41,873 nucleotides of DNA from a virus: the IMG/VR virus record IMGVR_UViG_3300022777_000088; one strand, given 5' to 3'. The notes under the pieces were generated by a model, which saw only the letters and a list, made by a program, of their open reading frames with translations, was not told the DNA's origin and searched no databases. Made by a program: the position numbers and the translations under genes. Position 1 is the first letter of the stretch. Every line of letters starts with the position of its first letter. Below, one piece after another: positions 3 to 37,900 of the stretch.

Positions 3-1166
3 AGCCGAACGTATCACCGAATCGCAGTTGGCATCGAAGACGCCGGATTTGAGATTCGTGATACCATTGACTGGATTTACGCAGAGGGGTTCGCGAAGAG
101 CCACAGCGTTAGTAAAGCAATCGACAAGCACTTTGGCAGAAAAGATGAACGAGAAAAGATCGGTCTGAAAGATAAGGCAAGCCGAAAAGACGGCTCGATG
201 GTCGATCGCGAGTCCTACGGCGGAGAGTGGAAAGATAATCCATCGGGATGGCAAGAGCGAGGACGCGACCCGTATGAAAGGGCAGCGGCAACCGACCAGG
301 CGGAGAAGTGGGACGGTTGGGATACCCAGCTCAAGCCCGCCAAAGAACCGATTCTGATTGCTCGCAAGCCCTTAGAAGGCACGGTAGCAGAGAACGTGTT
401 GGACCACGGCACCGGCGCTTTGAATATCGATGAGTGCCGTGTGGAAGTTCCAGACGGGGATGAGATTCGCGTTGGCTACGAAGGTGGGCCGGGCGACGCC
501 CTTGAAGGATGGACTCGCGATTGGATGGAAGACGAAACGCAGTGGGAAAACTACAAAGACCGTGCAGTTGACAAAGCGAATGAAAGCGGACGGTGGCCGC
601 CAAATGTCATTTTCGATCCGGCCATGGCAAAGCGGCTTGACGACCAGAGCGGACGCGATTTGACTGCAGGAGGGGACATCAATGAAAAAGAGCGAGAGCC
701 GACCAACTGCTACGCAGATCCGACAGGCACCGTTGGGCATGAAAGCTATGACGACGAAGGCGGCGCCTCAAGGTACTTCAAGACCATTCGTTATCACCCC
801 GAAGACAACCTCGGATTTTTCTACTGCCCAAAGGCAAAGAAGAGTGAGCGAAACCTTGGAGCAGATAACGACCACGTGACTGTCAAGCCCATAGAGCTTG
901 TGAGCTACCTTGTGAGGCTTCTTACTCCAAAAGGGGGGCACACCCTTGACCCGTTTGCCGGAAGCGGCACGACGGGCATGAGCGCCGTTCTGGAAGGATG
1001 TGAGGCGACCCTTGTGGAGATGGACGAGCACTACGTCGAGATCGCCGAGCAACGAGTCCGATACGCAAAAACCAACTACCAATCACTTCGCGAAGACATT
1101 TTTGGGGATCCATCAAACAACATCACAGATGAGCAAACCGAAGTCAACGACCACAACTTTTGGTAA
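3..1166 (+). CDS. DNA methyltransferase, N6/N4 beta class (5' part lies outside the window); intein-free paralog
   Basis: The frame is open from nt 3 (SRTYHRIAVGIEDAGFEIRDTIDWIYAEGF...), upstream of the track's start at 198. It contains LKPAKEPILIARKP, GRWPPN, HVTVKP and motif I LDPFAGSGTTG near the C-terminus. Confidence 0.92.
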   Translation, partial: SRTYHRIAVGIEDAGFEIRDTIDWIYAEGFAKSHSVSKAIDKHFGRKDEREKIGLKDKASRKDGSMVDRESYGGEWKDNPSGWQERGRDPYERAAATDQAEKWDGWDTQLKPAKEPILIARKPLEGTVAENVLDHGTGALNIDECRVEVPDGDEIRVGYEGGPGDALEGWTRDWMEDETQWENYKDRAVDKANESGRWPPNVIFDPAMAKRLDDQSGRDLTAGGDINEKEREPTNCYADPTGTVGHESYDDEGGASRYFKTIRYHPEDNLGFFYCPKAKKSERNLGADNDHVTVKPIELVSYLVRLLTPKGGHTLDPFAGSGTTGMSAVLEGCEATLVEMDEHYVEIAEQRVRYAKTNYQSLREDIFGDPSNNITDEQTEVNDHNFW

Positions 1167-3462
1167 TGGCGTGCTGCAAGGCGACGCCAAAGAAATGCTG
1201 AAAGAGCTTGAAGCGGACTCGTTCCATTCTTGCGTCACAGATCCGCCGTATGAACTCGGCTTTATGAACCGGCAGTGGGACGACAGCGGAATCGCGTTTG
1301 ACGTCGGGTTTTGGGAACAGGTCAAGCGAGTGCTCAAGCCGGGCGCACATCTTCTGGCATTCGGAGGATCTCGCACTCACCACCGCATGATGGCAGCGAT
1401 TGAAGATGCTGGATTTGAGATTCGTGATACGCTTATGTGGGTATATGGCTGTGTATCGCCAGATACAGATATACTTACTAGTGAAGGGTGGAAGTCTCAC
1501 GATGAAGTAAGTATAAACGGCACAGCAGTTTGCTATGATAAAAATACAGGACGTTATCAGTACGGTCCGATTCAGCAAAAGTTGGAGAAGTATAACCAAC
1601 TTAAAGCCTACCGAATTCAAGGAGATCGTACAGATCAAATCGTCTCTCCAGAGCACCGTGTCCTCGTTGAACGAGGCGGAAATCTCGAATTTGAAAGAGC
1701 GTGGAGATTGGCACGGCAACAGAAAATATCCGTACCCGTACTGGAAAATTTGCAATCAGTGCGAAATGATATTTCCGGCTATGGACAAATCGCAATCCAA
1801 ACAGAACAAAACTTGCAGCGAAAAGTGCGCAAAGAGCCTTATATCGAAAAACCGCAGTGGAAGACCGAAGATGAAAAACAGAGACTATACTACCGAAGTA
1901 ACTTGCAAAAATTGTGGAGAAGTCTTCTGGAAAAGACAAGATCGGACAGGTGGAAAGAATTTTTGTACAAAAGAATGCCATACGGAATGGCGAAGCGAAA
2001 GCGAAAAAGTTGCAAAACATATGCGGAAAATTGCTGCAACTGGAATAGAAGGATGGGACAAAAAGCAGTTGGAAAAACTCTCAGAACAGATGACCGGAAA
2101 AACAAATCCGAGTTGGAAGGGGGGAGTAACTTACAAGAGTGGAAAAGGAAACTACGACGATACTGTACTCGTCAAGTGCCCGAAAGAGTACGAAGAAATG
2201 GCAAGGAAAAACGGCTACGTGCTCGAACACAGGCTCAAAGTGGCAAAAGAAATCGGCAGGCCGCTCAAAAGCGAAGAAGTGGTGCATCACATAGACCACG
2301 ATCCTCAGAACAACGAAATGGAGAATTTAATGCTGTTTCGGAACAATCGAGAGCACAAACTTTACGAGCACAACGGCAGCCCGAAACCGATTTGGCAACC
2401 ATCAAACCAATAGAAAATTATGACGATATGGTTTGGTGCGTTAAAGTTCCCACCGGAGCTTTCGTCGCAAGAAGAAACGGAAAAATCTTCGTAACTGGAA
2501 ACAGCGGGTTCCCCAAAAACCACGACATTAGTAAAGCGATTGACGATCACTTTGATGAAGACAGGAAAGTGGTTGGCACAAAGCAGATTGGAAACTCAAG
2601 CCGCACGGAAGGAAAGGATTGGGAGTCCGACAGCGGATTTTCAAATGGCCAAGTCGAAGTCACTGAACCGGCGACAGAAGAAGCAAAGAAGTGGGAGGGT
2701 TGGGGCACTGCCCTAAAGCCGGGATACGAGCCGATTTGTCTCGCGCGAAAGCCACTGAGTGAAAATACTATTGCGGAAAACGTGCTGAAACACTCCACTG
2801 GAGCCTTGAACATTGACGGTTGTAGGATTGGGGGAGATGGAGGAACGCAATACGTCTCCGGTGGAGAGGGAAGCAAAAATGATTACGGGGACGGCCTCAA
2901 CTCAACGACCGACGTGAAAGTGGACGGGCTTGGGCGTTGGCCAAACAACTTGATGCTTGACGATCGGGCGTCGATTTTGCTTGACAGACAAAGCGGAGAC
3001 TGCCCGACAGGCGATACAGCAAGAACAGGAAAGCGAAAAGAGGGCAGTGGATGGGGGATGAGCGAACAGCAAAACAATCCGGCGTACAAAGACAAAGGCG
3101 GCGCTTCCCGCTTTTTCTACTGCCCGAAGGCACACAAAAACGAGCGTAACATCGGCGCCGACAACAATGACCACCCCACAGTCAAGCCCGTTGAGTTGAT
3201 TGCTTATCTCATTCGCCTCTCAACGCCGCCGGAAGGACGAACACTTGATCCATTCGGTGGAAGCGGGACGGCAGGGATTGCGGCAGTCTTGGAACAAAAG
3301 GACTTCGTGCTCATTGAAAAGAATAAAGACCACGCAGAGCTTGCGCAAAGCCGCATTGAACACGTGAGAAACAACATGGCGTCAGTGCGTAAGCAAATCT
3401 TCGAGGATCCTTCAAACAACTTGACAGAACAAGGCGCAAAGATTGACCATGACTTTTGGTAA
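1129..3462 (+). CDS. DNA methyltransferase, N6/N4 beta class, intein-containing
   Basis: Motif IV DPPY lies near the N-terminus, and HPTVKP plus motif I LDPFGGSGTAG near the C-terminus. It is collinear with the upstream paralog once 1450-2502 is removed. The start is either ATG 1129 or GTG 1171. Confidence 0.92.
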   Translation: MSKPKSTTTTFGNGVLQGDAKEMLKELEADSFHSCVTDPPYELGFMNRQWDDSGIAFDVGFWEQVKRVLKPGAHLLAFGGSRTHHRMMAAIEDAGFEIRDTLMWVYGCVSPDTDILTSEGWKSHDEVSINGTAVCYDKNTGRYQYGPIQQKLEKYNQLKAYRIQGDRTDQIVSPEHRVLVERGGNLEFERAWRLARQQKISVPVLENLQSVRNDISGYGQIAIQTEQNLQRKVRKEPYIEKPQWKTEDEKQRLYYRSNLQKLWRSLLEKTRSDRWKEFLYKRMPYGMAKRKRKSCKTYAENCCNWNRRMGQKAVGKTLRTDDRKNKSELEGGSNLQEWKRKLRRYCTRQVPERVRRNGKEKRLRARTQAQSGKRNRQAAQKRRSGASHRPRSSEQRNGEFNAVSEQSRAQTLRAQRQPETDLATIKPIENYDDMVWCVKVPTGAFVARRNGKIFVTGNSGFPKNHDISKAIDDHFDEDRKVVGTKQIGNSSRTEGKDWESDSGFSNGQVEVTEPATEEAKKWEGWGTALKPGYEPICLARKPLSENTIAENVLKHSTGALNIDGCRIGGDGGTQYVSGGEGSKNDYGDGLNSTTDVKVDGLGRWPNNLMLDDRASILLDRQSGDCPTGDTARTGKRKEGSGWGMSEQQNNPAYKDKGGASRFFYCPKAHKNERNIGADNNDHPTVKPVELIAYLIRLSTPPEGRTLDPFGGSGTAGIAAVLEQKDFVLIEKNKDHAELAQSRIEHVRNNMASVRKQIFEDPSNNLTEQGAKIDHDFW
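1450..2502 (+). mobile_element. Intein (351 aa, class 1-type: Cys1...Gly-Asn, Ser+1) in the methyltransferase
   Basis: Block A CVSPDTDILTSEGW, block B IVSPEHRVLV, block F MVWCVKVPTGAFVA and block G IFVTGN followed by Ser. Removal restores WVYG|SGFPK, matching WIYAEGFAK in the paralog. Confidence 0.93.
1535..2413 (+). CDS. HNH homing endonuclease with two Cys4 zinc-finger-like modules, nested in the +1 frame inside the intein
   Basis: CNQC..CSEKC and CKNC..CTKEC, the linker GKTNPSWKGG, and the HNH core YVLEHR...VVHHIDHDPQNNEMENL...H...H. The start codon is uncertain. Confidence 0.88.
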   Translation: MIKIQDVISTVRFSKSWRSITNLKPTEFKEIVQIKSSLQSTVSSLNEAEISNLKERGDWHGNRKYPYPYWKICNQCEMIFPAMDKSQSKQNKTCSEKCAKSLISKNRSGRPKMKNRDYTTEVTCKNCGEVFWKRQDRTGGKNFCTKECHTEWRSESEKVAKHMRKIAATGIEGWDKKQLEKLSEQMTGKTNPSWKGGVTYKSGKGNYDDTVLVKCPKEYEEMARKNGYVLEHRLKVAKEIGRPLKSEEVVHHIDHDPQNNEMENLMLFRNNREHKLYEHNGSPKPIWQPSNQ

Positions 3463-3829
3463 ACACGAACAGGAGTACATCAAAGAAAACGTCGAGCGGC
3501 TCATGATTGAGGCGTCGGCAGCAAGGTACTCCCTCATTGGCGTTCACGGCGACCCGCCTTACGACCACGCCAACTACTTTAGGTTTTCAAATGGCCCAAG
3601 GTGCGTGAACATGTGGATGGAAAACATGACTCACCTTAGAGAAAAGGGAGTAATCGGCCCGCAGATTGAAGTGGAGGTATGGGAAAACGAAGGGCAATCG
3701 TGGGCGGTGGTCGTAGACGATCGGGTGCCGGACGATTACATTCAGGACTCGCCCTGCTTCACTGGATACGCGGCGCCTCCTGAAAGCATTCTTCAAATCA
3801 TGAATGAAAAGTACGACTGGGATGACTGA
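3449..3829 (+). CDS. Hypothetical protein with N-terminal HExxY motif (FGKHEQEYI)
   Basis: The ATG overlaps the end of the MTase gene. The protein is acidic and carries the shared motif. Confidence 0.8.
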   Translation: MTFGKHEQEYIKENVERLMIEASAARYSLIGVHGDPPYDHANYFRFSNGPRCVNMWMENMTHLREKGVIGPQIEVEVWENEGQSWAVVVDDRVPDDYIQDSPCFTGYAAPPESILQIMNEKYDWDD

Positions 3830-4025
3830 ACTGTTTTACGAACACGAACAACGGTACATTCACAGGCTGTACAAGAAACAGTTGCGAAACGCGACCTACA
3901 AGGGCGGAGAGTTTCAAGTTCCGGTCAAAGGGATTGGGCGAGACAGTTTTTTGACGCCACCTGACCGGATTGGCTACTCAGTGATAACGGGTCGAACTGG
4001 AGCAGCACACATTTGGGAGATATGA
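3822..4025 (+). CDS. Small hypothetical protein with HExxY motif (FYEHEQRYI)
   Basis: ATG 3822 overlaps the previous stop; shared motif present. Confidence 0.72.
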   Translation: MTELFYEHEQRYIHRLYKKQLRNATYKGGEFQVPVKGIGRDSFLTPPDRIGYSVITGRTGAAHIWEI

Positions 4026-4213
4026 ACAGGATCCTTTGCAAGCATGAAGCTGAATACGTCGAAGGGAAAGGTTCCCGGGAAGTGTACCAGTACAAGGTCA
4101 GCAAAAGACGGGTATCCACTTTCGCCGGAAAGATTGTGAACAGTCCCTTTTTAGTCGGCGTCGACTCCAAAAGTCGAGGTCCTGAATCGAATAGATTATA
4201 CTGGCAGTTATGA
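4022..4213 (+). CDS. Small hypothetical protein with HExxY motif (LCKHEAEYV)
   Basis: ATGA overlaps at both ends; shared motif present. Confidence 0.72.
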   Translation: MNRILCKHEAEYVEGKGSREVYQYKVSKRRVSTFAGKIVNSPFLVGVDSKSRGPESNRLYWQL

Positions 4214-5211
4214 ATAAGTTTTTCGAGACCGAACAAGACAAACAAACACATATAAGCCACTCGCAGTTCAAGACGTGGCGAGAGTGCCCGCGCAAGTGGC
4301 AGCTCAAGTATCGCGACGGCAAACGGCCGCCGGATGAGAGCATTCATCTTGTGTTCGGTGTCGCGATCCACGAAGTGCTTCAGGAGTATCTGAACACTCT
4401 GTATAACTCGACGGTCAAAGAGGCAAACAACTTGAACCTCAAAGATCGGTTTCGGACGCTTCTGAAAGAAGAACACGACAGCCGAAAAGAAAGCTTCAAC
4501 GAAAAGCACCCCGACACCGAGTTTCCGGTGACAAAACAAGAGATGGTGGAGTTCGGAAAAGACGGAGCCGCGATTATAGAGTACTTCAAGCGGAACCGTA
4601 GTGATTACTTCTCAAAACGAGACACGAAGCTCGTCGGTATCGAAGAGAAAATTGAGAAGCAGGTTTCGGAAGGCATATCCTGGATCGGCTACTTGGACGT
4701 CGTTCTCTATAACAAGAGCGAAGGCACGTATAAAATCATTGACCTCAAGTCGTCGACGAAGGGTTGGAACAAGTGGAAGAAGCGGGAAAAAAAGCGAACG
4801 GATCAGCTCGTGGCATACAAGATGTTCTATGCCGATCAGCTTGGAGTTGATCCTGAGCAGATTGAGGTTGAGTATCTGATCATGAAGAGAAAGCTCAACG
4901 ACGACGCCCCATACAAGCCTGCACGGTTCCAGCGGTTCAGTCCGGCCAGTGGAAGTCAAAGCCGAAATCGAGTGAGGGAGAAAATCAAAGAGTTCATCGG
5001 TGAAGGCTTTGAAGAGGACGGCGGCTACACCGGCGGCGACTTCGAGAAGGATCCAGGAAAGTACAAGTGCGTGTGGTGCCCATTCTCAAAACAGTTTGGC
5101 TACGACGGATACCAAATCTGCGACCAAGATGGAAACACATACTTGGACTACGGAGAAGGAATGGCACCTTACGTTGACGATAAGTATGTTGGGCCTCAAC
5201 CAGAAGAATGA
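4210..5211 (+). CDS. PD-(D/E)XK nuclease, Cas4/RecB-like exonuclease
   Basis: ISHSQ...ECPRKW, FGVAIHEVLQ, GYLDVV...IIDLKS, QLVAY and C-terminal CVWCPF...C (four-Cys Fe-S-type arrangement). Confidence 0.9.
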   Translation: MNKFFETEQDKQTHISHSQFKTWRECPRKWQLKYRDGKRPPDESIHLVFGVAIHEVLQEYLNTLYNSTVKEANNLNLKDRFRTLLKEEHDSRKESFNEKHPDTEFPVTKQEMVEFGKDGAAIIEYFKRNRSDYFSKRDTKLVGIEEKIEKQVSEGISWIGYLDVVLYNKSEGTYKIIDLKSSTKGWNKWKKREKKRTDQLVAYKMFYADQLGVDPEQIEVEYLIMKRKLNDDAPYKPARFQRFSPASGSQSRNRVREKIKEFIGEGFEEDGGYTGGDFEKDPGKYKCVWCPFSKQFGYDGYQICDQDGNTYLDYGEGMAPYVDDKYVGPQPEE

Positions 5212-5465
5212 AACGAATACACCCACTTTGCGAGCACGAAAGAGAGTACATGCGAGTGCGTAGAAGGGAGGCCGAAGAAGTAATGCAGTTTGTCCATAAG
5301 ACGACGGTTGCTTTGATTGGGGCGAGAGAGCTTCAAGTGCTGAACCCGAGTAACATTCACTACCACAGACATCTTGAGCACGACAACAACTACTGGATTT
5401 TCGTTCGGGACGAAGACGACGTCGTTGAAGTTACGGTGAATCGTGGAACACTTTCGCGCGCGTGA
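5208..5465 (+). CDS. Small hypothetical protein with HExxY motif (LCEHEREYM)
   Basis: ATGA overlap with the nuclease stop; shared motif present. Confidence 0.72.
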   Translation: MKRIHPLCEHEREYMRVRRREAEEVMQFVHKTTVALIGARELQVLNPSNIHYHRHLEHDNNYWIFVRDEDDVVEVTVNRGTLSRA

Positions 5466-5475
5466 GCGTTTGTAA
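5445..5475 (+). promoter_or_regulatory. Putative ECF-sigma-type promoter GGAAC-N17-CGTT
   Basis: GGAAC at 5445-5449 and CGTT at 5467-5470, followed by TGTAA, ~40 nt upstream of ATG 5513. A similar element occurs at 6245. Confidence 0.4.
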
Positions 5476-5512
5476 TAAATGCGTTATATCCCTCACCACT
5501 GGCAAAAAGACG

Positions 5513-5980
5513 ATGAACATTTTCTTTCTGGACTCCGACCCCGAAGTTGCGGCGCGCTTTCACAACGACAGCCACTGCAGCAAGATGATCCTGGAGTCGG
5601 CACAGATGCTTTCAACGGTGTGCCGCAAAAACGGGATAGACGCTGGCTACAAGCTGTGTTTTCGCAATCACCCCTGCACGCTTTGGGCAGGCGAAAGTAG
5701 GTCAAACTGGAACTGGCTTCGCCGTTTGGCGCTTGCTTTGAATGAAGAGTTCAGGTATCGGTACGACAACAGCGACGACCACAAGTCGGCAACGGTCATT
5801 CGGGAGCTTCCCACGCCGCCGCTTCCCGAGCAAGGGTTGACGCGCCCTGCACTTGCGATGCCGGATTCGTGTAAGCGAGAAAGTCCAGTGGAAGCGTACA
5901 GAACCTACTATCGGCAAGAGAAAGACCACCTTGCCGAATGGACGAAGCGAGAACCGCCAGAGTGGTATGCTATTTCTTGA
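5513..5980 (+). CDS. Pyrimidine-dimer DNA glycosylase / endonuclease V (DenV)-family protein
   Basis: Characteristic start MNIFFLD..P...A..HND.H..KMILESAQMLST, then HPCTLW, EFRYRY...HKS, AMP and AYRTYY...K...W.KR..PEW. Confidence 0.8.
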   Translation: MNIFFLDSDPEVAARFHNDSHCSKMILESAQMLSTVCRKNGIDAGYKLCFRNHPCTLWAGESRSNWNWLRRLALALNEEFRYRYDNSDDHKSATVIRELPTPPLPEQGLTRPALAMPDSCKRESPVEAYRTYYRQEKDHLAEWTKREPPEWYAIS

Positions 5981-6239
5981 GCACGAGATTGATTATATCT
6001 ATCGGAATTCAGATCTGAAAAGAGAACGATTCACTGTATGCCAAATCAAACGCTTCTACGGCGGCAGGCTCTTGTATGATTACCTTGTGTGCTCAGTCGA
6101 CGAACCAGATGAAGAGGGCATCATCGTCGGCATGATGTCAGAACCGACCCCGCGTTCGATGAGGTGGGAAGAGCAAGGAAATCAGAGAATATACGACGGC
6201 GGAAACGCGGTGCTTATGTTTCGCAAGGTCTTCACATAA
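5967..6239 (+). CDS. Small hypothetical protein with HExxY motif (FLEHEIDYI)
   Basis: ATG 5967 overlaps the previous stop; shared motif present. Confidence 0.72.
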   Translation: MLFLEHEIDYIYRNSDLKRERFTVCQIKRFYGGRLLYDYLVCSVDEPDEEGIIVGMMSEPTPRSMRWEEQGNQRIYDGGNAVLMFRKVFT

Positions 6240-6244
6240 GCAAG

Positions 6245-6272
6245 GGAACGGATGGCGGCCGCGCACGTGTAA
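6245..6272 (+). promoter_or_regulatory. Putative ECF-sigma-type promoter GGAAC-N16-CGTGTAA
   Basis: Lies in a true intergenic gap ~40 nt upstream of ATG 6313 and mirrors the element at 5445. Confidence 0.38.
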
Positions 6273-6312
6273 GCCTGTGAACTATCAAGGGAAACCAACC
6301 AACCGACCCGTT

Positions 6313-6546
6313 ATGTCACGCAAGACTGAGATTTTGATAAGCACATATTCCGACCCCAACGGCAACGAGCGGACGATTGTGTTTCAAAATCAAAGCATCC
6401 GTTTCAGCCGCAAGCGCCAGGACCGTCAGACGATTGAAACGGCGAAGAGGGCGGCACGCAACGCCTTTGAGGAAGCGCCGTTTGAAGCGGAAATCGTGTG
6501 GTGGGACGGCGACCACAAGCTCAAACACACAGTCGCGACCAAGTAG
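6313..6546 (+). CDS. Hypothetical protein
   Basis: ORF follows an intergenic gap with an A/C-rich leader and fits the gene packing. Confidence 0.65.
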   Translation: MSRKTEILISTYSDPNGNERTIVFQNQSIRFSRKRQDRQTIETAKRAARNAFEEAPFEAEIVWWDGDHKLKHTVATK

Positions 6547-6548
6547 AT

Positions 6549-6800
6549 ATGTCACGTTACTCAAAGCGAGTCGATAGCACCACGGTCATTGAGTATGGCT
6601 TCGACCGTGCTCCGTTCTCTGGATACTTCTTCTCCGTCGAGAAAAGCGGTGAAGTGGTCGAGGCGGGAGACACCCGTGAGGCGATGATCTGCCACGAAAA
6701 GGAAGAGCGAATGAACCGCTCGGAGATCGTGGAGAAGCTGCGAGAATACGGCGTACGCACCGATCACGTCGAAGCAATGGCGATGGACCAGCCGTTTTGA
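6549..6800 (+). CDS. Hypothetical phage protein (YGFD...GYFF motif)
   Basis: ATG lies 2 nt after the previous stop; codon usage resembles neighbouring genes. Confidence 0.7.
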   Translation: MSRYSKRVDSTTVIEYGFDRAPFSGYFFSVEKSGEVVEAGDTREAMICHEKEERMNRSEIVEKLREYGVRTDHVEAMAMDQPF

Positions 6801-6802
6801 GA

Positions 6803-7138
6803 ATGGGCGTTCTCAAAAGGCACGAAGCCCGTTACCTTTGGGAAAACCGGCCGCCAAAAGATGTGGCGGTGCAGCGGGGAACGTATGACGCGGAAGTCGT
6901 GTGGCACGAAGAAGTCCCGAAGGTTCGAAGTGGAGCGCCCCGAGACGAAATCCCGCTTGTCTTTGACCTTGTGGCGAGGGAAGACAGAGAATGGTTCATC
7001 AAAGGCGTGAAGCTTTATTTCGATCGCCGCCTGGCGCTTCAAACCGAGCACGGGAAAACCGTGCTTGAAAATAACGACGAACGACTTCGCCCGATCGGCT
7101 ACGAAAACTATGAGTTTTGGGTAAGCGACCTATCATGA
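6803..7138 (+). CDS. Hypothetical protein with HExxY motif (LKRHEARYL)
   Basis: Start is ATG 6803 or TTG 6797; shared motif present. Confidence 0.75.
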   Translation: MGVLKRHEARYLWENRPPKDVAVQRGTYDAEVVWHEEVPKVRSGAPRDEIPLVFDLVAREDREWFIKGVKLYFDRRLALQTEHGKTVLENNDERLRPIGYENYEFWVSDLS

Positions 7139-7437
7139 ACGTTCTCGCGAATCACGAAATCGAATACATCCGCCAGCGCCCAAGTCAAGAGGCTGGGTTG
7201 CTCAAGGATAACAACGTTTTGAAAGCGTTCGGTGAGAGAAACGAAAGAACAGTGAACCTCAAAAACTCCGCCGAACAGCTTTTGACTGCAAACGGTGATA
7301 TGGTGCTTTGTTATCGAGAAATGATACGGGTTCGCACGTGGAAAGACGTCGAGCAGTGCGTTTGCGATGACAAAAGCCAATACGTACACGAAGCGAAAGT
7401 GAATCCGATTGAACCAAAGTACAGGCAAGCGATTTGA
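7135..7437 (+). CDS. Hypothetical protein with HExxY motif (LANHEIEYI)
   Basis: ATGA overlap; shared motif present. Confidence 0.75.
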   Translation: MNVLANHEIEYIRQRPSQEAGLLKDNNVLKAFGERNERTVNLKNSAEQLLTANGDMVLCYREMIRVRTWKDVEQCVCDDKSQYVHEAKVNPIEPKYRQAI

Positions 7438-7712
7438 GAAGCAAACTGCTGACAAATCACGAAATCGAATACTTCGCCGAGAAAGCGGCGAAACCACCAG
7501 AAGATATTCGCGACCTCGTCTCCGACCAGTTCACCTTCTGGCATCTTGAGTCTCAAAAACTAACCTACGACTGGACGCTCAAGGCGTCACCGAGCTTCGA
7601 GAAAGTGTGGATAGACTTTCACATCACAGGTGTCACGAAGGCAACGTCAAACTCTCTGGATCGGAAGCTGTTGATCTCGAAATCGAAGCCGAAGTATACT
7701 TATGAGCGCTAG
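7434..7712 (+). CDS. Hypothetical protein with HExxY motif (LTNHEIEYF)
   Basis: TTGA overlap; shared motif, with 18 nt identical to the previous gene. Confidence 0.72.
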   Translation: MRSKLLTNHEIEYFAEKAAKPPEDIRDLVSDQFTFWHLESQKLTYDWTLKASPSFEKVWIDFHITGVTKATSNSLDRKLLISKSKPKYTYER

Positions 7713-8202
7713 TACGTTCAAGAAGTTCGACGTCGACAAAACCCGCAGAGTCTTCATGCGGCACGAAAAGCGGTACATGAAATGGGAGGGCTTCGTGGTC
7801 GGAGTCGTCGGCAGTCGAGAGTGGGCAGACCGAGGAAAAATGAACCACGTCATCACCACTCTTCAAGAAAAACGAGACGGCTTGTCTATCGTGAGCGGGG
7901 GGGCAGACGGCGCAGACAAAATGGCAAAACATCTTGCACTTCATCACGGAATCCCGTACAAAGAGTTCACGCCAGAGCATGAAGAGGCGAACAAGTGGAC
8001 GATTCAACAAGACCGAAGATTTGGTAAAGATTACGCTCCACGGTTCTTCTTCAAGCGAAATGCAGAACTTGCTAAATATGTAGATCTGCTCGTCGCTTTC
8101 ATTCCCGAAGACTTTATTGGGGATCCCGAAAACGCGAAGGGAACAAAGCACACGGTCAAAGTGGCAAAAAAGCATGACACAAAAGTAACAGTCCTCAAAT
8201 GA
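7702..8202 (+). CDS. SLOG-superfamily (YspA/DUF2493-like) nucleotide-binding protein with N-terminal HExxY motif (FMRHEKRYM)
   Basis: VGVVGSRE, IVSGGADGAD, FKRNAEL...DLLVAF and GTKHTV are typical SLOG/DprA-like motifs. Confidence 0.78.
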   Translation: MSASTFKKFDVDKTRRVFMRHEKRYMKWEGFVVGVVGSREWADRGKMNHVITTLQEKRDGLSIVSGGADGADKMAKHLALHHGIPYKEFTPEHEEANKWTIQQDRRFGKDYAPRFFFKRNAELAKYVDLLVAFIPEDFIGDPENAKGTKHTVKVAKKHDTKVTVLK

Positions 8203-8444
8203 TTGATTGGTTTCTCAGTTTGTTCGAGACCATGAAAGAAGAAGACTGGACGTACGGGCGGGCGGAAATCCCACTTCAAAGCCCACCGCAATGTTGCGGA
8301 AGAGACGACAAAGTAATGTATCCAGCACGGGTTCGGTACACCGACGACGAGATTCAAATCTACGCAGGAAAGCCGAAGCAGGTCGGTTGGAAAACCGTGG
8401 AGTCCGAAAACATCAAGTTCATCATTCGACAGCAAATACAATGA
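8199..8444 (+). CDS. Hypothetical protein
   Basis: ATGA overlaps at both ends. Confidence 0.65.
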   Translation: MIDWFLSLFETMKEEDWTYGRAEIPLQSPPQCCGRDDKVMYPARVRYTDDEIQIYAGKPKQVGWKTVESENIKFIIRQQIQ

Positions 8445-8860
8445 TTGACGTTACACGAACGCAAACAACGACACTTCGAAAAGCGAGTCCGGGGGATTTC
8501 GTTTCATTTCGATATAGAGACTCGGACGGCGAGCACTCGAAACGCAACATTCTTGTGCTCGTATACGAGGAAGACAGAGAGCTTCTTCACGGGCTTGATC
8601 TCGAACACTTCTCCGATCAAAATCTCGCACGAACCGGCCGTGAACTTGCGGAGTTTGCGGGAGAGACCGGAGAGTACGACGAACGTTTCGTCGAGGACGG
8701 TGACGTGATTTTGGAAACCATAAGCGACAACATTGTGGAGCAGTGGTACGAAACCGAGTACTCCGCTGACCGATACGAGGATAATCCCTATCGCACCTTC
8801 CGAAAAGATGGTATCCGAAATCTCCGAAAAGCTGACGTTTCAGTAGTTACAGAAACATGA
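8441..8860 (+). CDS. Hypothetical protein, possibly WYL-like SH3/Sm-type fold
   Basis: VSFRY...GEHSKRNILV, LHGLDL and YRTFRKDGI resemble WYL-domain motifs. The start at ATG 8441 (ATGA overlap) is preferred to 8207. Confidence 0.55.
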   Translation: MIDVTRTQTTTLRKASPGDFVSFRYRDSDGEHSKRNILVLVYEEDRELLHGLDLEHFSDQNLARTGRELAEFAGETGEYDERFVEDGDVILETISDNIVEQWYETEYSADRYEDNPYRTFRKDGIRNLRKADVSVVTET

Positions 8861-9699
8861 ATAATCCCTACGAAGTGCTTGGCGTCGACGAAGACGCCGA
8901 CAACGAAGAAGTCAAACAGGCGTACAGAGAGCTTGCCAAAGAATATCACCCCGACCGCGGCGGTGACGCCGAGAAGTTCAAAGAAATCCAGTCTGCCTAC
9001 GACCAGATCACAAGCGAGGGCGGTCCGGGTTTTGAAGGCGGTTTTGACGACCAAGACCCCTTTGCAGCGGAAGGTGCAGCACGAGGGTTTGACTTCGGTG
9101 GCAAAGACAAAACCGTCGAAGACTTCGTCCGTGACTTTCAGGAGTTTGCAGGTAAGGGCGGGTTTGAACGCCACGGTTTTCAGGGAGATCCCTTTGGAGG
9201 AAATGATCCATTCAGAGGCCAACAGGAGATTATTTACGAGCTTCCCATTGACTTTCGTACGGCGGTGTATGGAGACACAGTAGAAGTTCGAGCAAGAGGA
9301 CCGGACCAGACTGCAGAGAAAAGGCAAATCGAGGTGCCGCCTGGTGTGAATAATGGCCAGAAAATCACGTACGACGGGAACTTTACGGTCAAGTTCGCCG
9401 TTAATAACACCACGAGGTTTTGGCGCCAAAACGAAAACGATCTCTATACCGTCCGACAAGTTCCTGTTTGGGACGCAATGACAGGAGCGAGCTTGGAGGT
9501 TGAAACCCTTGACGGCCAAAAAGTTCGGCTCAAGGTGGATCCCGGCACCTCTCACGGACAGACGTATCGCCTCAACGGCTTCGGCGGTCCTCCAACTCAC
9601 GGAGGTAAAACACAAGGCGATATGTACGTTGAAATCCACGTGGATATCCCCGCCGTGACCGACGAAGAAAAAGTTGAGGCAATCAATGATCTACGATAG
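8857..9699 (+). CDS. dnaJ: DnaJ-family co-chaperone (class B/CbpA-like, no zinc finger)
   Basis: J domain NPYEVLGV...AYRELAKEYHPD, a G/F-rich linker and a DnaJ C-terminal domain (DAMTG..LEVETLDG, PGTSHGQ..RL.G.G, GDMYV). Confidence 0.93.
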   Translation: MNNPYEVLGVDEDADNEEVKQAYRELAKEYHPDRGGDAEKFKEIQSAYDQITSEGGPGFEGGFDDQDPFAAEGAARGFDFGGKDKTVEDFVRDFQEFAGKGGFERHGFQGDPFGGNDPFRGQQEIIYELPIDFRTAVYGDTVEVRARGPDQTAEKRQIEVPPGVNNGQKITYDGNFTVKFAVNNTTRFWRQNENDLYTVRQVPVWDAMTGASLEVETLDGQKVRLKVDPGTSHGQTYRLNGFGGPPTHGGKTQGDMYVEIHVDIPAVTDEEKVEAINDLR

Positions 9700-9835
9700 C
9701 TTCCATTCACTGAAAATGCAGGCGTCCTATAACGTTGAGCTGTTTACCGCTTATGAGCTTCGGTACATGGCGATCCGAACAAAAGACGTAGCAGGGCGGT
9801 TTCAATACGCTTTTGAACATAGGCACAGTTATTAG
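9686..9835 (+). CDS. Small 49-aa ORF with a variant motif (LFTAYELRYM)
   Basis: Below the ORF-track cutoff. It overlaps the dnaJ stop and fills the gap before 9847. Confidence 0.45.
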   Translation: MIYDSFHSLKMQASYNVELFTAYELRYMAIRTKDVAGRFQYAFEHRHSY

Positions 9836-31997: not shown

Positions 31998-34900
31998 ATG
32001 GCAATTTTCCTAAAACGAAACGGCGCGTGGCAAAAGATTGAGGAGCCGTACATCAAGCGAAACGGCAACTGGATCTTGCCCGAGGAAGGGTACATCAAAG
32101 AGAACGGCCAGTGGAAGCTGATCTTCGAGCAGTTTGAGTTCGAGGTCGAGACCGTTTCCGCAAGCGAAGATATCAACACCGCCACGTTCACCGGACAACT
32201 CACAGCTTTTGAAGATTTTGAGGAGTCCAACTTTCTTCAGACCACGCTTACCGATGCTACGTCGAGTCCGGGCGTTGCTGTGGACGGAGACCGTCAAAAA
32301 GTAGCAGTCGGTGGCGGAGACGACACTGTTTACGTTTACGACAGGGACTTCAACCTTGAAGACACCCTCTCAGACCCCGCAAATCGGGTTCTTAGCTGTT
32401 CTTACAATACAAACAATGGAAGGCTTGCTGCAGGATCCGCCGACATGAGCGTGTACGTATACGACTCTGACGGCAACTTGGAGGCTACCTTGACCGACCC
32501 CGGCGGGGAAGTTAATGACGTCGTGTTCAACGAAAGCAATGGGCGGCTTGCAGTTGGAAGTGAAGACAACCAGGTATACCTTTACGACTCGAACCTTCAG
32601 CTCACAAACACAATCACGCAGTTCTCCAATCCTGTCAAAAGCCTTGATTGGAGGGAGTCCGACAACTACCTCTTCATTTCGGCCAACCCGGGAGCAGTCA
32701 CGGTTCTGGACACATCTTTCAACTCCGTCGATACTCTTACCGACGCCTCTGGCGAAACTCGTGTAGCAGTTGGCGACAACGACCGCATTGCGGTTTTGAA
32801 TTCACAGAAGATTTACATCTACACGAACAACTTCAGCCTTACTTCTGAGCTTACGGAGTTTGACGAAACGGCAAGCGGCGATCTTGGAGACGTGGCTTGG
32901 GACGACAACGGACGCGTCGCCCATGCGAGTCGCGACAGCAAAGTGTACATCTACAACTCCAGCTACAATAACATCGCGACGATCGACGACTCCGGTCGGC
33001 GGTTCTCGAAGATGGATTGGAGTGGACAGAATGACATTCTTGCCGCAGGTGCAGATGAAGGCGGGCAAGGGGATACGTACGTCATCTCTACTGGCGTCTC
33101 GGTGTTCTTCGAGTACGGCCAGCAAGGGCAAGGGCTTTCAAATCGAGTTCGGGCAGGCGGGCGCACGGCGCTTGGCCAGTTCTCCACAGACATTGACGGG
33201 CTTCAGCCTCTCACTTCTTACGAAATGCGAGCAGGGGGAGAAACCAGCGAAGGGCGCGAAGCCTTCGGTGACACGATTCTCTTCACCACGTCCGACACCG
33301 TTCTTCAAGTCGATACGCTTTCGGCAACGAACGTCTTCACAACGACAGCGGATCTTCGTGGGGAAATCACCGCGTTCGACGGGTTCAACCAAGACGCGAA
33401 CATTCGATTTGATTGGGGAGAGCAATCGGTCGGTCCTGTGAATACGCTCAACGCAGGAACGCAAAGCGGAACAGGATTCTTCCAGGAAGAGCTGACTGGC
33501 CTTACTGACGGGGAAACCTACGTGTTTGAAGCCGTCGCTTCTGCTGGATCCAAAGTTGAACGCGGCGGTGAAGTCACGTTCTCCACGACCGCCATTCAAC
33601 TCAACACGAATACACTCGGAGCAAGCGGCGTTCAAGCTCAGACTGCCACTCTCAATGGAGAGCTTACCGCATTCAGTGGATTTACACAAGACGCAACCGT
33701 TGAGTTTGAGTGGGGCGAGCAGGGAAGCGGCTTTCCGAACACAACGACAGCCGATCAAAGCCCACTCAGTTCGACGGGAACGTTCAGCGCCGTGATTGGC
33801 GATGATCAGGGAGAACCCGTTGATCCTGCCACACAATACGAATACCGGGCAGTTGCCGAAGCCGAAGGTGTCGTCGACACCGGCGGATTTGTGAACTTCA
33901 CTACACAATCGACAACCCTTACCGTACAGACCGATGCCGCGTCGAACATCAGCTTCGATTCAGCACAGCTCAACGGAACGCTTACCGCCTTTGATGGGTT
34001 TGTTCAGGGGACGACAGCAAACGTGAAGTTCGAGTGGGGCCAGCAAGGCCAGCCACTTTCAAACGTGGAAAACGCTGGAAACCTCAGCTCCACGTCTCCG
34101 TTCAGCTCAACATTGACGGGACTTCAAAACGGCACCACGTATGAATACAAGGCGATTGCTGAAGCCGGAAACAAGACGCGTGAAGGTTCGGTGGTTAGCT
34201 TCGACACCGTGGATGTGATCATCGACGTCACTACCGATCCCGAATCAAACGTTACGCAAACGAGCGCACAGCTCAACGGAACGCTCAACCAGCTTCAAGG
34301 CACGTCCTCGACGACAGCGAACTTCGCATGGGGGCAAGTTGGCCAAGGAACGCCAAACACGACCACAAACCAAACACTTAGCTCAACCGGGTCTTATAGC
34401 GCTTCGTTGAGCGGACTGCAGCAAGACACTGACTACGAGTACAAGGCACAAGCTGGAAGTGAAGAGGGCAACCTTGTTCAGTTCAGCACTTCACAGTTTG
34501 TCATCCAAATCGACTCGGCAACATACAGCTACACCGCTGGAGATCAGGTGACGTTTGGAGAGAGCGAAAACGTAAGTGTCACCGTATCCGGCACAGGAGG
34601 GCTTGACTTCGACTACGAGGTTCGAGAAATAGTCAATGGAACTAGTCAGGGAACAGTTGCAGACGTTTCCAACCAGTCCTCCACGACGTTCACGGCGAAC
34701 TGGAATGTCGGAGACTCCGCAAATACCAACGAAAGCGACTTCGACCAAGGAAACACGATCGCGTATGAGGTTGTCGTAACTGACGTAAACAATAACACTG
34801 ACAGCGACCAGTCTTCGGACGTCACTTATCAAGAGGCTCCGGCAATCAACGTTCCGAACTCCAAGTCGTTCTTTGCGCAAAGCGGAAACCAGCAAACGCG

Positions 34901-37900
34901 AGCAATCGATATTACCGAAGAAAGTGGAAAGGAAGACTTGACGATTGACAGCACGAACACTCAAATCGTTGGATCCGATCCAGGCGAGTTCACGTTTTCG
35001 AACCTTCCGGGAACCATTCCAGCGGGAACAACCGAAAGCGTTGACGTCACATACAGTCCAACTGCAGTCGAGACTGACGACGCTGTGTTCGAAGTTGCGC
35101 ACGACGGTCGAAACATTTCAAGCCCGGTGAACATTACGCTTGATGGAAGTGCGCAAGAAGTTCCACTCATTAGCGTTACTCCAACCAGTCAAGACTTTGG
35201 CCAAGTTGCCGTTGGAAACACGCCAACTCGACAGTTCACTGTTTCGGAGGATGGGGGTGATAGCAACCTCGTTATTAGCTCCACAACTCTCAGCGGTGAC
35301 GGTGAGTTCTCGATCACCAGCGATATTCCGGATAACACAACGATCAGCGCTGGCGGTTCCGATACGCTTACTGTCGAGTACGCGCCAAACCAAGGCGGCG
35401 AATCCAATAGCGCAACGCTTACCATCAACTCCGACGCCGACAACAACGGCAGCCTCGAAGTTTCCTTGGATGGTCAAGGCAAGTTCGTTCCAGCAATCGA
35501 CCTCAACCCAGATGGCACTCAAGACTTCGGAACGATCTCTACCGATCAGACAGACACGATCACCTTCACAATCAACGAAACCAGTGGTGATCAAGGACTT
35601 ACAATCAGCAACATTCAGACGACCGGAACAAACGCTGGCGACTTCGACCTCGGCAGCAACGTATCAACGATTGAATCGAACGGAGTGCCTGCTGGCGGAT
35701 CTGAGTCCTTCGATGTGACCTTTGATCCAACAGCAAACGGCGCCAGAAACGCGACACTCGAAATCGAGCACGACGGTCAAAACATTTCAAGTCCGATTAG
35801 CCGATCGCTTGAAGGTGACGCGACCACCGCTTCGACCATCGGAACTGCACCGGCAGAAGGTGACACGTTGGACTTCGGTTCGATTATCGAAGACGAATCG
35901 ACGAGCGACACGATCACCATTCAAGAAACCGGGGGCGCCAATAGCTTCACGATTGACAACATCAATGCAAGCGGAAACGCGTTCAACCTTCTCTCTTCCG
36001 GATCGATCGATCCGGTGGGCAACTCCGGACCATTCACCATTCCTGCTGGCGGAAGCGAAACGGTCGGTGTGGAGTTTGATCCGACATCGGATGGAAACTT
36101 CACGAACCAGTTCACCTTTGACCACACGGCAGCAGAGGGAGATGTGGATACGAGCGTGACCATTGACCTCACAGCAACCGCACAGTCGGTTTCCACGATT
36201 TCCACGAGTCCAGTGGATGGGGGAACGCTTGTGCTTTCGGCTACGTCAGGAAATAGCGATCAGGCAGACATCACCATTTCAGAAGTTGGCGGTGGAGAGA
36301 GTTTCGACGTCACCGGACTCAACCTTACGGACAACAGCTCCGAAGGAAATGCGTTCAGCATTCAAAGTTCTCCGGGGAACAACTTCACTGTAAATCCATC
36401 AACTTCCGAAACTGTCACGATTGCCTACAATCCAACGGACACGACGTCCGATACTGGAAGTCTTGATATTACGCACAACGCCAACGATGGGCCGACTAGC
36501 CCCGTTCAGATTGACATTTCTGGATCTGCTACCGCACCGGCGACCTTCGATATCAGCGCGACGACGCTCAACTTCAATGATCGGCTTGTTAGCAATAGCG
36601 ACTCCATAAGTGTATCGATTTCTGAAACAGGCGGGGATAGTGGATTCAATATCACAAACCAGTCAATCACGTCCAACTCTTCGGACTTCAACATCACGAA
36701 CAGTGCCAGCAGCTCGGTTTCAGCTAGTGGAAGCACCACTGCAACCGTCGAGTTCGCGCCGACATCGGTAAGCGGAAACTCCGAAAATGTGTCCGGAACG
36801 TTCACCATTGAACACGACGCACCGCAGGGGAACAGCTCTCCGGTCGACGTTTCTCTCAACGGAACGGCACTCAAACAAGCAACCGCTGCTCTGTCTACTG
36901 GATCGATTAGTTTTGGAAACGTAATTGAAGGAAACAGCGCGACAGATAGTTTCCAAATCCAAGAGACCGCCGGAAACGAGGATTACACGATCACCGGCTT
37001 CAATCTTACTGGCGATACCACTGAGTTTGATAATCAGCCGTCGCCGCAAGGTATATTTGCAGGATCCAGTGAAACCGTAACATCTGAGTTTACTCCATCA
37101 AGTGGAAATAATACAAACTTCAATGCGACACTCGAAATCAGCCATGACGCGGCAAACGGGCCGGATCCACTTACTCTTGATTTGAGTGGCACTGGAATCA
37201 CGCAAGTCACTGCAGCAGTGTCGCCACAAAGCATAGACTTCGGAACAGTGTTCGCTGATGCAAACACGCAAACGGAATCCTTCACTCTTTCCGAAACAAG
37301 TGGAAACGGTGGATACACAATCACCAGCACAACCGTCACCGGAGACGCCACTTCGGAGTACGGACTACAAAATGTTCCAAATTCGATTTCCAGCGGCGGT
37401 AGTGATAGTAGCGGAGAAGTTGTATTCGGTCCGCTTGACAGTGGAACTCAAACAGCGACAGCGGAAATCAGTCATGATGCTCCGGGCGGCGACGATCCAT
37501 TGACCATTGACCTCACTGCAGATGTTGAAGTGAAATCGACAATATCCCTCTCGACAACTAGTCTTTCATTCCCAGACACGATCGTTGGAAACTCGTCGTC
37601 TTCACAGTCCTTCACTGTTTCCGAAACAGGTGGGGACAACAGCTTCACCACAAGCAATGATGGCATTGCCGCACAAACCAGCACAGCTACAGATCAGTTC
37701 AACACTACCAATAGTGTCTCCAGTTCGATTTCTGCTGGAGGAAGTGATACCGTTTCGATTGAATTCACTCCAGACTCAACAACCGGCGGATCTTGGAACG
37801 CTACATACAGGTTTGATAACACTGCTCAACTTGGAAGTGAAAGCGGAACTGCAACCATCGATTTGAGTGGAACTGCTCTAGCAGATGCAAACATTACTGG

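Follow-up and report, generated by a model that had tools for sequence, protein, structure and literature searches.

A short terminal peptide tag shared by diverse small accessory proteins of a large phage and its relatives

A recurrent peptide at the ends of small proteins

Ten small accessory genes in a 41,873-nucleotide stretch of viral DNA (IMG/VR record IMGVR_UViG_3300022777_000088; the window, for short), which is part of a large phage (134,161 bases), encode proteins that share a tag of about ten residues with the consensus L-[LF]-x-x-H-E-x-x-Y-[IM]. We conclude that this tag is real and undescribed; a literature search, mostly of open-access papers without their supplements, found no description of it or of a phage docking system of such breadth. 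The original prediction, made from the letters of the DNA, had placed nine motifs of this kind and a His-to-Tyr variant, FTAYELRYM; all nine were found at the predicted His codons on the plus strand, and the variant begins at 9743. Bare HExxY occurs exactly nine times across the six frames of the window, each time near the start of a small gene, compared with a mean of 1.81 and a maximum of 5 in shuffled sequences (0/100 shuffles reached nine), and the full DNA pattern occurs nine times against a shuffle mean of 0.02 and a largest value of 1. Indeed, an unsupervised search of gene termini ranked HExxY first among the N-terminal patterns of the window (7/37 called genes, none internal), a count lowered by the gene caller, which placed some tagged starts too far in. 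With the starts chosen here the His is residue 6, 8, 8, 10, 6, 7, 7 and 9 in eight genes, within the range first proposed, and residue 21 in a further one. The reported overlap or abutment with the upstream stop also holds, since nine of the ten genes overlap it by 4–14 bases and one starts 2 bases after it. No tag copy lies in the 9.9–41.9 kb part of the window.

Relatives were obtained by a DNA scan for two tags at gene-like spacing. Locus scans seeded with the PD-(D/E)XK, DnaJ and SLOG proteins of the window gave no relative, and the protein encoded at 8441 retrieved only L063. Most matches of the paired-tag scans were dropped as repeats, off-frame shadows or internal domain repeats, true relatives being only 0/4, 3/51, 3/6 loci (2 contigs), 2/3 (known contigs) and 0/17. 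Five contigs of related phages remained (G001, found as L061; G002, found as L063; L009, L033 and L028), with 41 further tag copies. G001, of 86 kb, comes from a myovirus, since it has genes for tail sheath, tube and baseplate as well as for UvsX and SSB; L063 is syntenic with the window. Among annotated phages, the best matches of the window's PD-(D/E)XK nuclease are in the uncultured 484-kb phage LR756508 (43%), Flavobacterium phage immuto and Microcystis phage Mel-JY01; LR756508 has homologues of 15 window proteins, at 23–77% identity. A de novo search for terminal patterns found no comparable tag in immuto, Mel-JY01 or G003.

Including the ten of the window, 51 tagged open reading frames (ORFs) were curated with hand-chosen starts: 39 are N-terminal (tag within the first 20 residues, body of at least 40 residues), 5 are C-terminal and 7 are short or mid-placed. 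Their consensus is L-[LF]-x-[KNR]-H-E-x-[RDE]-Y-[IM]. The fixed acidic or Arg residue proposed before the Tyr did not survive, since K, N, S, T, F, W, Q and I were found there in relatives. The N-terminal location of the tag stood in most cases but not in all: it is C-terminal in five L063 proteins and in four of LR756508. Nevertheless, in the scans of the window and of LR756508 it is a terminal motif and not one equally common at internal positions. The five C-terminally tagged genes of L063 are consecutive or nearly so (7524–9141, minus strand), and their bodies resemble small SH3/KOW-type barrels by eye, with no Pfam match. A 15-residue tag-only peptide of L009 (640, minus strand) was set aside, as it looks like a broken copy of L033 4280 / L061 1472.

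Tagged genes come and go between conserved genes, and the accessory loci that hold them are hypervariable. Three tagged genes follow the second methylase in the window, and in L063 a single, different one does; before the 8199 gene there are four in the window and none in L063; and after dnaJ there is one in the window compared with three in L063.

Codon use and substitution patterns show that the tag is selected as a peptide and not as DNA, in agreement with the protein-level constraint first proposed from its synonymous changes. Over 45 tags, the choice of His, Glu and Tyr codons (CAC 29/CAT 12, GAA 27/GAG 18, TAC 31/TAT 13) equals genome-wide usage (CAC 0.78, GAA 0.59–0.62, TAC 0.64–0.66). 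In four orthologue pairs between L033 and L009, the 40 tag residues are all identical, with three synonymous and no non-synonymous changes, and the bodies have a ratio of non-synonymous to synonymous substitution (dN/dS) of 0.23, a value drawn from few sites and from these relatives rather than from window genes. This purifying selection supports the view that the tagged ORFs are real genes. The window gene at 5967 and its L063 orthologue differ at a proportion of 0.76 of synonymous sites (pS) and 0.37 of non-synonymous sites (pN). In a strain contig from a second sequencing run, which belongs to the same study as the possible source of the window, the tag at 5973 and the end of the same gene can be aligned, whereas the part between them is equally long but has diverged; an apparent deletion after this tag turned out to be this diverged homologue of unchanged length.

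Tagged bodies, a sister form and other address-like peptides

How different are the proteins that carry the tag? The original prediction saw no similarity beyond the motif, and this stands for seven of the nine window bodies, which match no other tagged protein, but the products of the 3822 and 4022 genes show a weak relationship to the family F1 described below. No pair of window bodies compared directly fell below E 0.37. Comparison with homologues shows that the tag is a portable add-on to unrelated bodies, two enzyme folds included, and the idea of a common tag on diverse proteins is borne out by its occurrence as an added leader on SLOG, phrog_14054 and Methyltransf_24 bodies. In the case of the YAcAr/SLOG-family protein, it is present in 4/4 close homologues (self included) and in 0/2 distant ones, whose start Met aligns with the last Met of the tag, and it is kept on homologues at 65–81% identity, where it lies outside the domain. 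The LR756508 orthologue is untagged, and the gene directly upstream of it is tagged. Similarly, in Vibrio phage D484 the homologue of the 3449 protein lacks the tagged leader and starts at query residue 15. Both bodies are ordinary members of their families (YAcAr/YspA SLOG, PF10686, for 7702; phrog_14054 for 3449), whereas the tagged leader is not found in distant members.

A subset of the N-tagged proteins does have more in common than the tag. A Trp is present within the last 8 residues in 22 of 33 non-redundant N-tagged proteins, compared with 7 of the 91 small genes without the tag (p = 1e-10), and in many of them a [DN]-[YF]-phi-phi-x-P block precedes the Trp-containing end strand by 12–25 residues. 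Tag, phi-phi-x-P and C-terminal Trp are the elements of family F1. A held-out model of the two body blocks matched 12/33 N-tagged proteins and 0/89 controls, and an F1 profile run against 1.84 billion proteins retrieved 29, of which 14 were neither training sequences nor close copies of these, all with the three elements. Over 36 F1 sequences H, E and W are invariant, and Y and P are present in 90% or more. With the tag removed from the profile, the 3822 and 4022 proteins still match (p 0.01 each), at scores of 3.7 and 4.8 bits that lie under the best untagged control (6.3) and with alignment columns built with both proteins present; the other seven give p 0.24–0.78. The possibility that all the proteins are one diverged fold with the motif as its core thus applies to the F1 subset only, and weakly to two of nine window proteins; similarity beyond the motif does not extend to the seven other window proteins, nor across the tagged proteins of LR756508. 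In four of the five C-tagged proteins a Trp lies 5–7 residues before the tag, as circular permutation would give. We discarded the explanation of the C-terminal Trp as a by-product of ribosome-binding sites, because it is also found in genes that are last in their array.

Neither the tag nor F1 gave a Pfam, PHROG or PDB sequence match above cut-off; an ESM Atlas search returned no usable match, and a fold search with a predicted structure found nothing at E≤0.001. Two AlphaFold models, of low confidence (predicted local distance difference test, pLDDT, 64.9 and 59.5), place the tag in a first helix followed by strands; in such a model the helix spans residues 6–14, with L/F, H, E and Y on one face. 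The tag is accordingly predicted to be a capped amphipathic helix. An origin from the zincin HExxH motif was set aside because the upstream hydrophobic spacing differs and because a sister form of the tag lacks the His.

This sister form is found in LR756508, a complete genome with about 50 tagged genes. The HExxY DNA pattern is at background level there, and the top N-terminal pattern of an unsupervised search is LxxxExxY (37/707 genes). The pattern L-[TS]-x-K-E-x-x-Y-[LI], used without training, matches 40 of 499 LR756508 small genes. Reversed proteins give 2 matches, and three more distant phages give none (0/150 small genes of immuto, 0/161 of Mel-JY01 and 0/232 of G003). A matrix trained on LR756508 itself finds 51 sites above 13 bits, compared with 1 in reversed proteins, and 56 above 12 bits, of which 44 are N-terminal, 4 are C-terminal and 8 are internal. 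Both forms share L/F, E, Y and I/L, with E in 51/51 and Y in 50–51/51 in each; H is exchanged for K/R, and T/S stands at the cap position. A T/S cap together with the kept positions is what characterises an N-cap box of a helix. The alignment of the two forms shows the sister form to be a clade-wide version of the tag with K/R for H. Its bodies are again diverse: only four pairs are related, none is related to the halophilic ones at E<0.02, and one of 47 has a Pfam match above cut-off, Methyltransf_24. Two arrays at 367–400 kb hold 33 of the 56 sites, a long way from the Gp23 capsid gene at 171.9 kb.

The clade also has other peptides that look like addresses. LRxxIREE, often followed by L-x-E, occurs in 24 LR756508 proteins, 21 of them at 140–221 kb around capsid and tail genes, and at the N-terminus of 8–12 G001 proteins (L066, L067, L068) near structural genes. 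Judged from this placement, it is likely the head-targeting motif, a protease-cleavage leader, of the clade. No copy of the tag lies near the LR756508 Gp23 gene or in the structural parts of G001 or of the window. Besides, DNA methyltransferases of two subfamilies end in H-x-F-W (1155–1166 and 3451–3462 in the window; also in L063, L033, L009, G001 and LR756508), a tail absent from immuto and Mel-JY01, which is possibly, at a guess, clamp- or replisome-binding.

Possible roles of the tag

What could such a tag be for? The E/Y polar pair is invariant across unrelated folds and at both termini, and would therefore form a binding surface for an outside partner; since the surface is shared, the site it binds would be shared too. 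That one common partner of some kind exists is probable. The reading that we favour, tentatively and from sequence, is that the tag is a portable docking helix through which interchangeable accessory proteins would dock, in the infected cell, on this partner, for which an AAA+ chaperone-protease of the Clp type is the leading candidate. The conserved helix face would bind the single partner, and the body would supply specificity, either for a host target to be caught or as an enzyme to be tethered. A cytoplasmic, adaptor-like use of the tag is conceivable and is put forward with reserve, and it is doubtful that the partner is specifically a Clp- or MoxR-type AAA+ protein. The earlier view of the motif as a sorting or docking signal gains from its being portable, selected as a peptide and terminal, and loses in that the tag is not N-terminal only and that a subset of its carriers is one diverged family.

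F-box proteins and SspB-type tether peptides, which join a constant short docking element to a variable specificity domain, may serve as a model for a constant dock with a variable body. The F-box, however, belongs to a eukaryotic ubiquitin ligase and SspB is a single bacterial adaptor, and the tagged proteins have no Pfam match to either. In phages, the relevant passages on SPO1 Gp53 describe a 25 kDa adaptor for host ClpC that binds mainly the ClpC N-domain (PMC6873191). Gp53 resembles the logic proposed here in that an accessory protein of a phage binds an AAA+ protease and alters its specificity, but it is one protein, whereas the tag is one short, predicted helix on dozens of unrelated proteins.

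Candidate readers are encoded in LR756508. A ClpC-like ATPase at 455037–457010 has a UVR domain and an IGF loop and no N-domain match; a gene with a tag-like start follows it directly, and a MoxR/CbbQ-type ATPase lies 0.6 kb further. At viral ClpC loci (L133–L212), the N-domain is missing in 68 of the 71 that could be classified among the best 80 matches, and no paper on N-domain-less viral ClpC was found in the literature search. The MoxR AAA+/vWA pair of group 2.2 jumbo phages has been proposed to act in virion assembly, in a survey that mentions DnaJ, SLOG and MoxR-vWA genes and whose passages on them describe no shared client tag (PMC7824862). As a phage-encoded AAA+ chaperone present in LR756508, MoxR could read the tag.

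Several observations weigh against docking on such an ATPase. Tag and dedicated phage ATPase co-occur in LR756508, but N-domain-less ClpC and MoxR are also found where the tag is absent: none of 700 small genes within 10 kb of viral ClpC loci carries it, five large contigs with N-domain-less ClpC show background only, a complete contig with such a ClpC has it in 0/232, and Mel-JY01 has a MoxR orthologue (50%) and no tag. Neither ATPase is in the available part of G001 (54% complete). Bacillus subtilis adaptors, in the passages on them, mostly bind the ClpC N-domain, which the phage copy lacks (PMC6873191). Moreover, both structure models are weak, enzyme bodies such as SLOG and the methyltransferase are less expected on an adaptor that catches substrates than on a tether or a degron, and within F1 the tag may be no more than a piece of the fold.

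Other explanations have to be weighed against the docking helix. The tag might be a packaging signal that binds a prohead scaffold or a tail part, so that diverse small anti-defence proteins would be loaded and injected as in T4. Most copies are N-terminal, about ten residues long and on small proteins at variable loci, and T4 internal-protein genes are also found outside the late cluster. T4-type capsid targeting sequences are, nonetheless, known as strictly N-terminal, removable leaders, and their motif is also known on prohead core or other head-region proteins. The tag departs from both features: its C-terminal copies cannot be cleaved leaders, 8 of the 56 sites of LR756508 are internal, and the head region of the clade has LRxxIREE instead. 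Since LRxxIREE reads as the head-targeting motif, the ExxY helix would be left for another job. About 50 tagged species per genome would also be many for cargo. What the two systems have in common is a constant short peptide on otherwise diverse small proteins, which in T-even phages is portable to foreign proteins, according to the passages on this sequence (PMC3012670); but the tag is also C-terminal and mid-chain, it is on around 7–8% of the small genes of a complete genome, and no sequence likeness between the two is known. Packaging, one of the roles first suggested for the motif, is thus weakened by the C-terminal copies and the separate head-region motif, and we regard it as unlikely. 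Less likely again is a degron or timer, by which a host or phage protease would remove early accessory proteins. A position at either terminus, on any fold including enzymes, and the Clp-type ATPases of the clade would suit it, but known terminal degrons need the very end of the chain whereas the tag floats 1–25 residues away from it and is sometimes mid-chain, and a timer in tagged genes but not in equally small untagged neighbours would be left unexplained.

The helix might instead have no outside partner and be the first helix of a fast-diverging small alpha/beta family, spread by fusion in overlapped arrays. The enriched C-terminal Trp, the held-out body model, the 14 further proteins with three elements and the Trp that precedes the tag in C-tagged proteins all speak for this. 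It fails to account for the seven window bodies that do not match F1, for the conserved tag outside the SLOG domain and for LR756508, where tags are many and F1-like bodies nearly absent (best profile E 0.008); in addition, packing alone is not expected to keep E and Y both exposed and invariant in folds that are unrelated. We consider it improbable to the same degree as the degron. Finally, a DNA or RNA element (a recombination site, operator or translation signal) might read as HExxY by accident, as CAC, GAA and TAC in 8/9 window tags and the location of the tags at gene junctions would allow. This is largely refuted and very improbable, given that the tags are always in frame with a synonymous split that follows genome-wide use, that position 0 uses every Leu and Phe codon and that substitutions are conservative (H to Y/W/F/K/R).

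If docking on an AAA+ partner is taken to its full extent, large Bacteroidota-type myophages would have a plug-in system in which dozens of swappable proteins clip via one helix on a single AAA+ protease or chaperone, their bodies delivering host defence or metabolic proteins for destruction or remodelling, and in which tag and reader co-evolve into clade forms, apart from the head and methylase-tail codes. This extrapolation is speculative, and we would not expect all of it to hold. The tag has consequences in any case. In large phages, small hypothetical genes make up the majority, and the tag unites into one functional class 7–8% of all small genes in a 484-kb genome and roughly half of those in the window's accessory region, so that naming its partner would assign a pathway to dozens of orphan proteins. 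Were the partner a protease or chaperone, the tag would represent an undescribed modular strategy of host takeover and would be transferable as a means of targeted degradation in bacteria; were the partner a virion part, the tag would be a second packaging code that works from either end.

Tagged genes of the window and their neighbours

Bases 1–14.5 kb of the window are a single array of tightly overlapping plus-strand genes. Besides many small hypothetical proteins, these encode two DNA methyltransferases, a PD-(D/E)XK nuclease, DnaJ, and one protein each of phrog_624 and of the SLOG family. The tagged genes, all on the plus strand, begin with 3449–3829 (126 amino acids), whose tag FGKHEQEYI (3455–3481) lies in a 14-residue leader before the phrog_14054 domain. 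It is followed by 3822–4025 (67 amino acids; FYEHEQRYI at 3834–3860), an F1 member (p = 0.01 both held out and with the tag-free profile), and by 4022–4213 (63 amino acids; LCKHEAEYV at 4034–4060), a probable one (p = 0.01 with the tag-free profile, p = 0.085 held out). The PD-(D/E)XK nuclease gene (4210–5211, plus strand), conserved and untagged, separates these from 5208–5465 (85 amino acids; LCEHEREYM at 5226–5252), for whose body no relative was detected. The gene at 5967–6239 (90 amino acids) has FLEHEIDYI at 5973–5999, and its L063 orthologue, with 43% body identity, has LSNHEAFYI. Three tagged genes then follow in close succession: 6803–7138 (111 amino acids; LKRHEARYL at 6812–6838), with a C-terminal Trp and an F1 match that is not significant (p = 0.065; p = 0.24); 7135–7437 (100 amino acids; LANHEIEYI at 7144–7170), a homologue of which, 72% identical, has FANHEIDYI; and 7434–7712 (92 amino acids; LTNHEIEYF at 7449–7475), with an inferred TTG start. 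In the YAcAr/SLOG-family protein (7702–8202, 166 amino acids), FMRHEKRYM (7753–7779) closes a 25-residue leader. The last tagged gene, at 9686–9835 (49 amino acids), is coupled to dnaJ and has the variant FTAYELRYM at 9743–9769; L063 has its three short tagged genes there.

The untagged genes of the array include that of the DnaJ co-chaperone (8857–9699, plus strand), which is conserved and whose product is a candidate partner of the tag, and a conserved gene at 8441–8860, 61% identical to L063 and without a Pfam or PHROG match, the end of whose product, YRTFRKDGIRNL, we take to be reminiscent of WYL or T4 gp2-like domains. The reading frame of the second methyltransferase (1000–3462, plus strand) runs without a stop for 820 codons and crosses an intein-like insert; a complete HNH endonuclease ORF (292 amino acids, PF13392) is nested inside it in another frame (1535–2413, plus strand). 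The L063 orthologue of this methyltransferase is without the insert, and LR756508 has the HNH part at 77% identity. A contig of run X1 fuses the end of the first methyltransferase (1166) to the 3449 gene region (3533), and this one low-depth contig suggests a strain without the second methyltransferase.

Translation factors were noticed in two of the relatives: LR756508 encodes its own elongation factor G (49613), and a protein of G001 (L069 2478), 45% identical to the product of an LR756508 gene, looks by eye like IF-1. The remainder of the window encodes tail-fibre-like proteins. These are very acidic (isoelectric point around 4), which suggests a saline habitat for the phage. One of them, of 2,879 amino acids (31998–40637), has an N-terminal beta-propeller followed by many immunoglobulin domains of the ASH/Cep192/HYDIN type.

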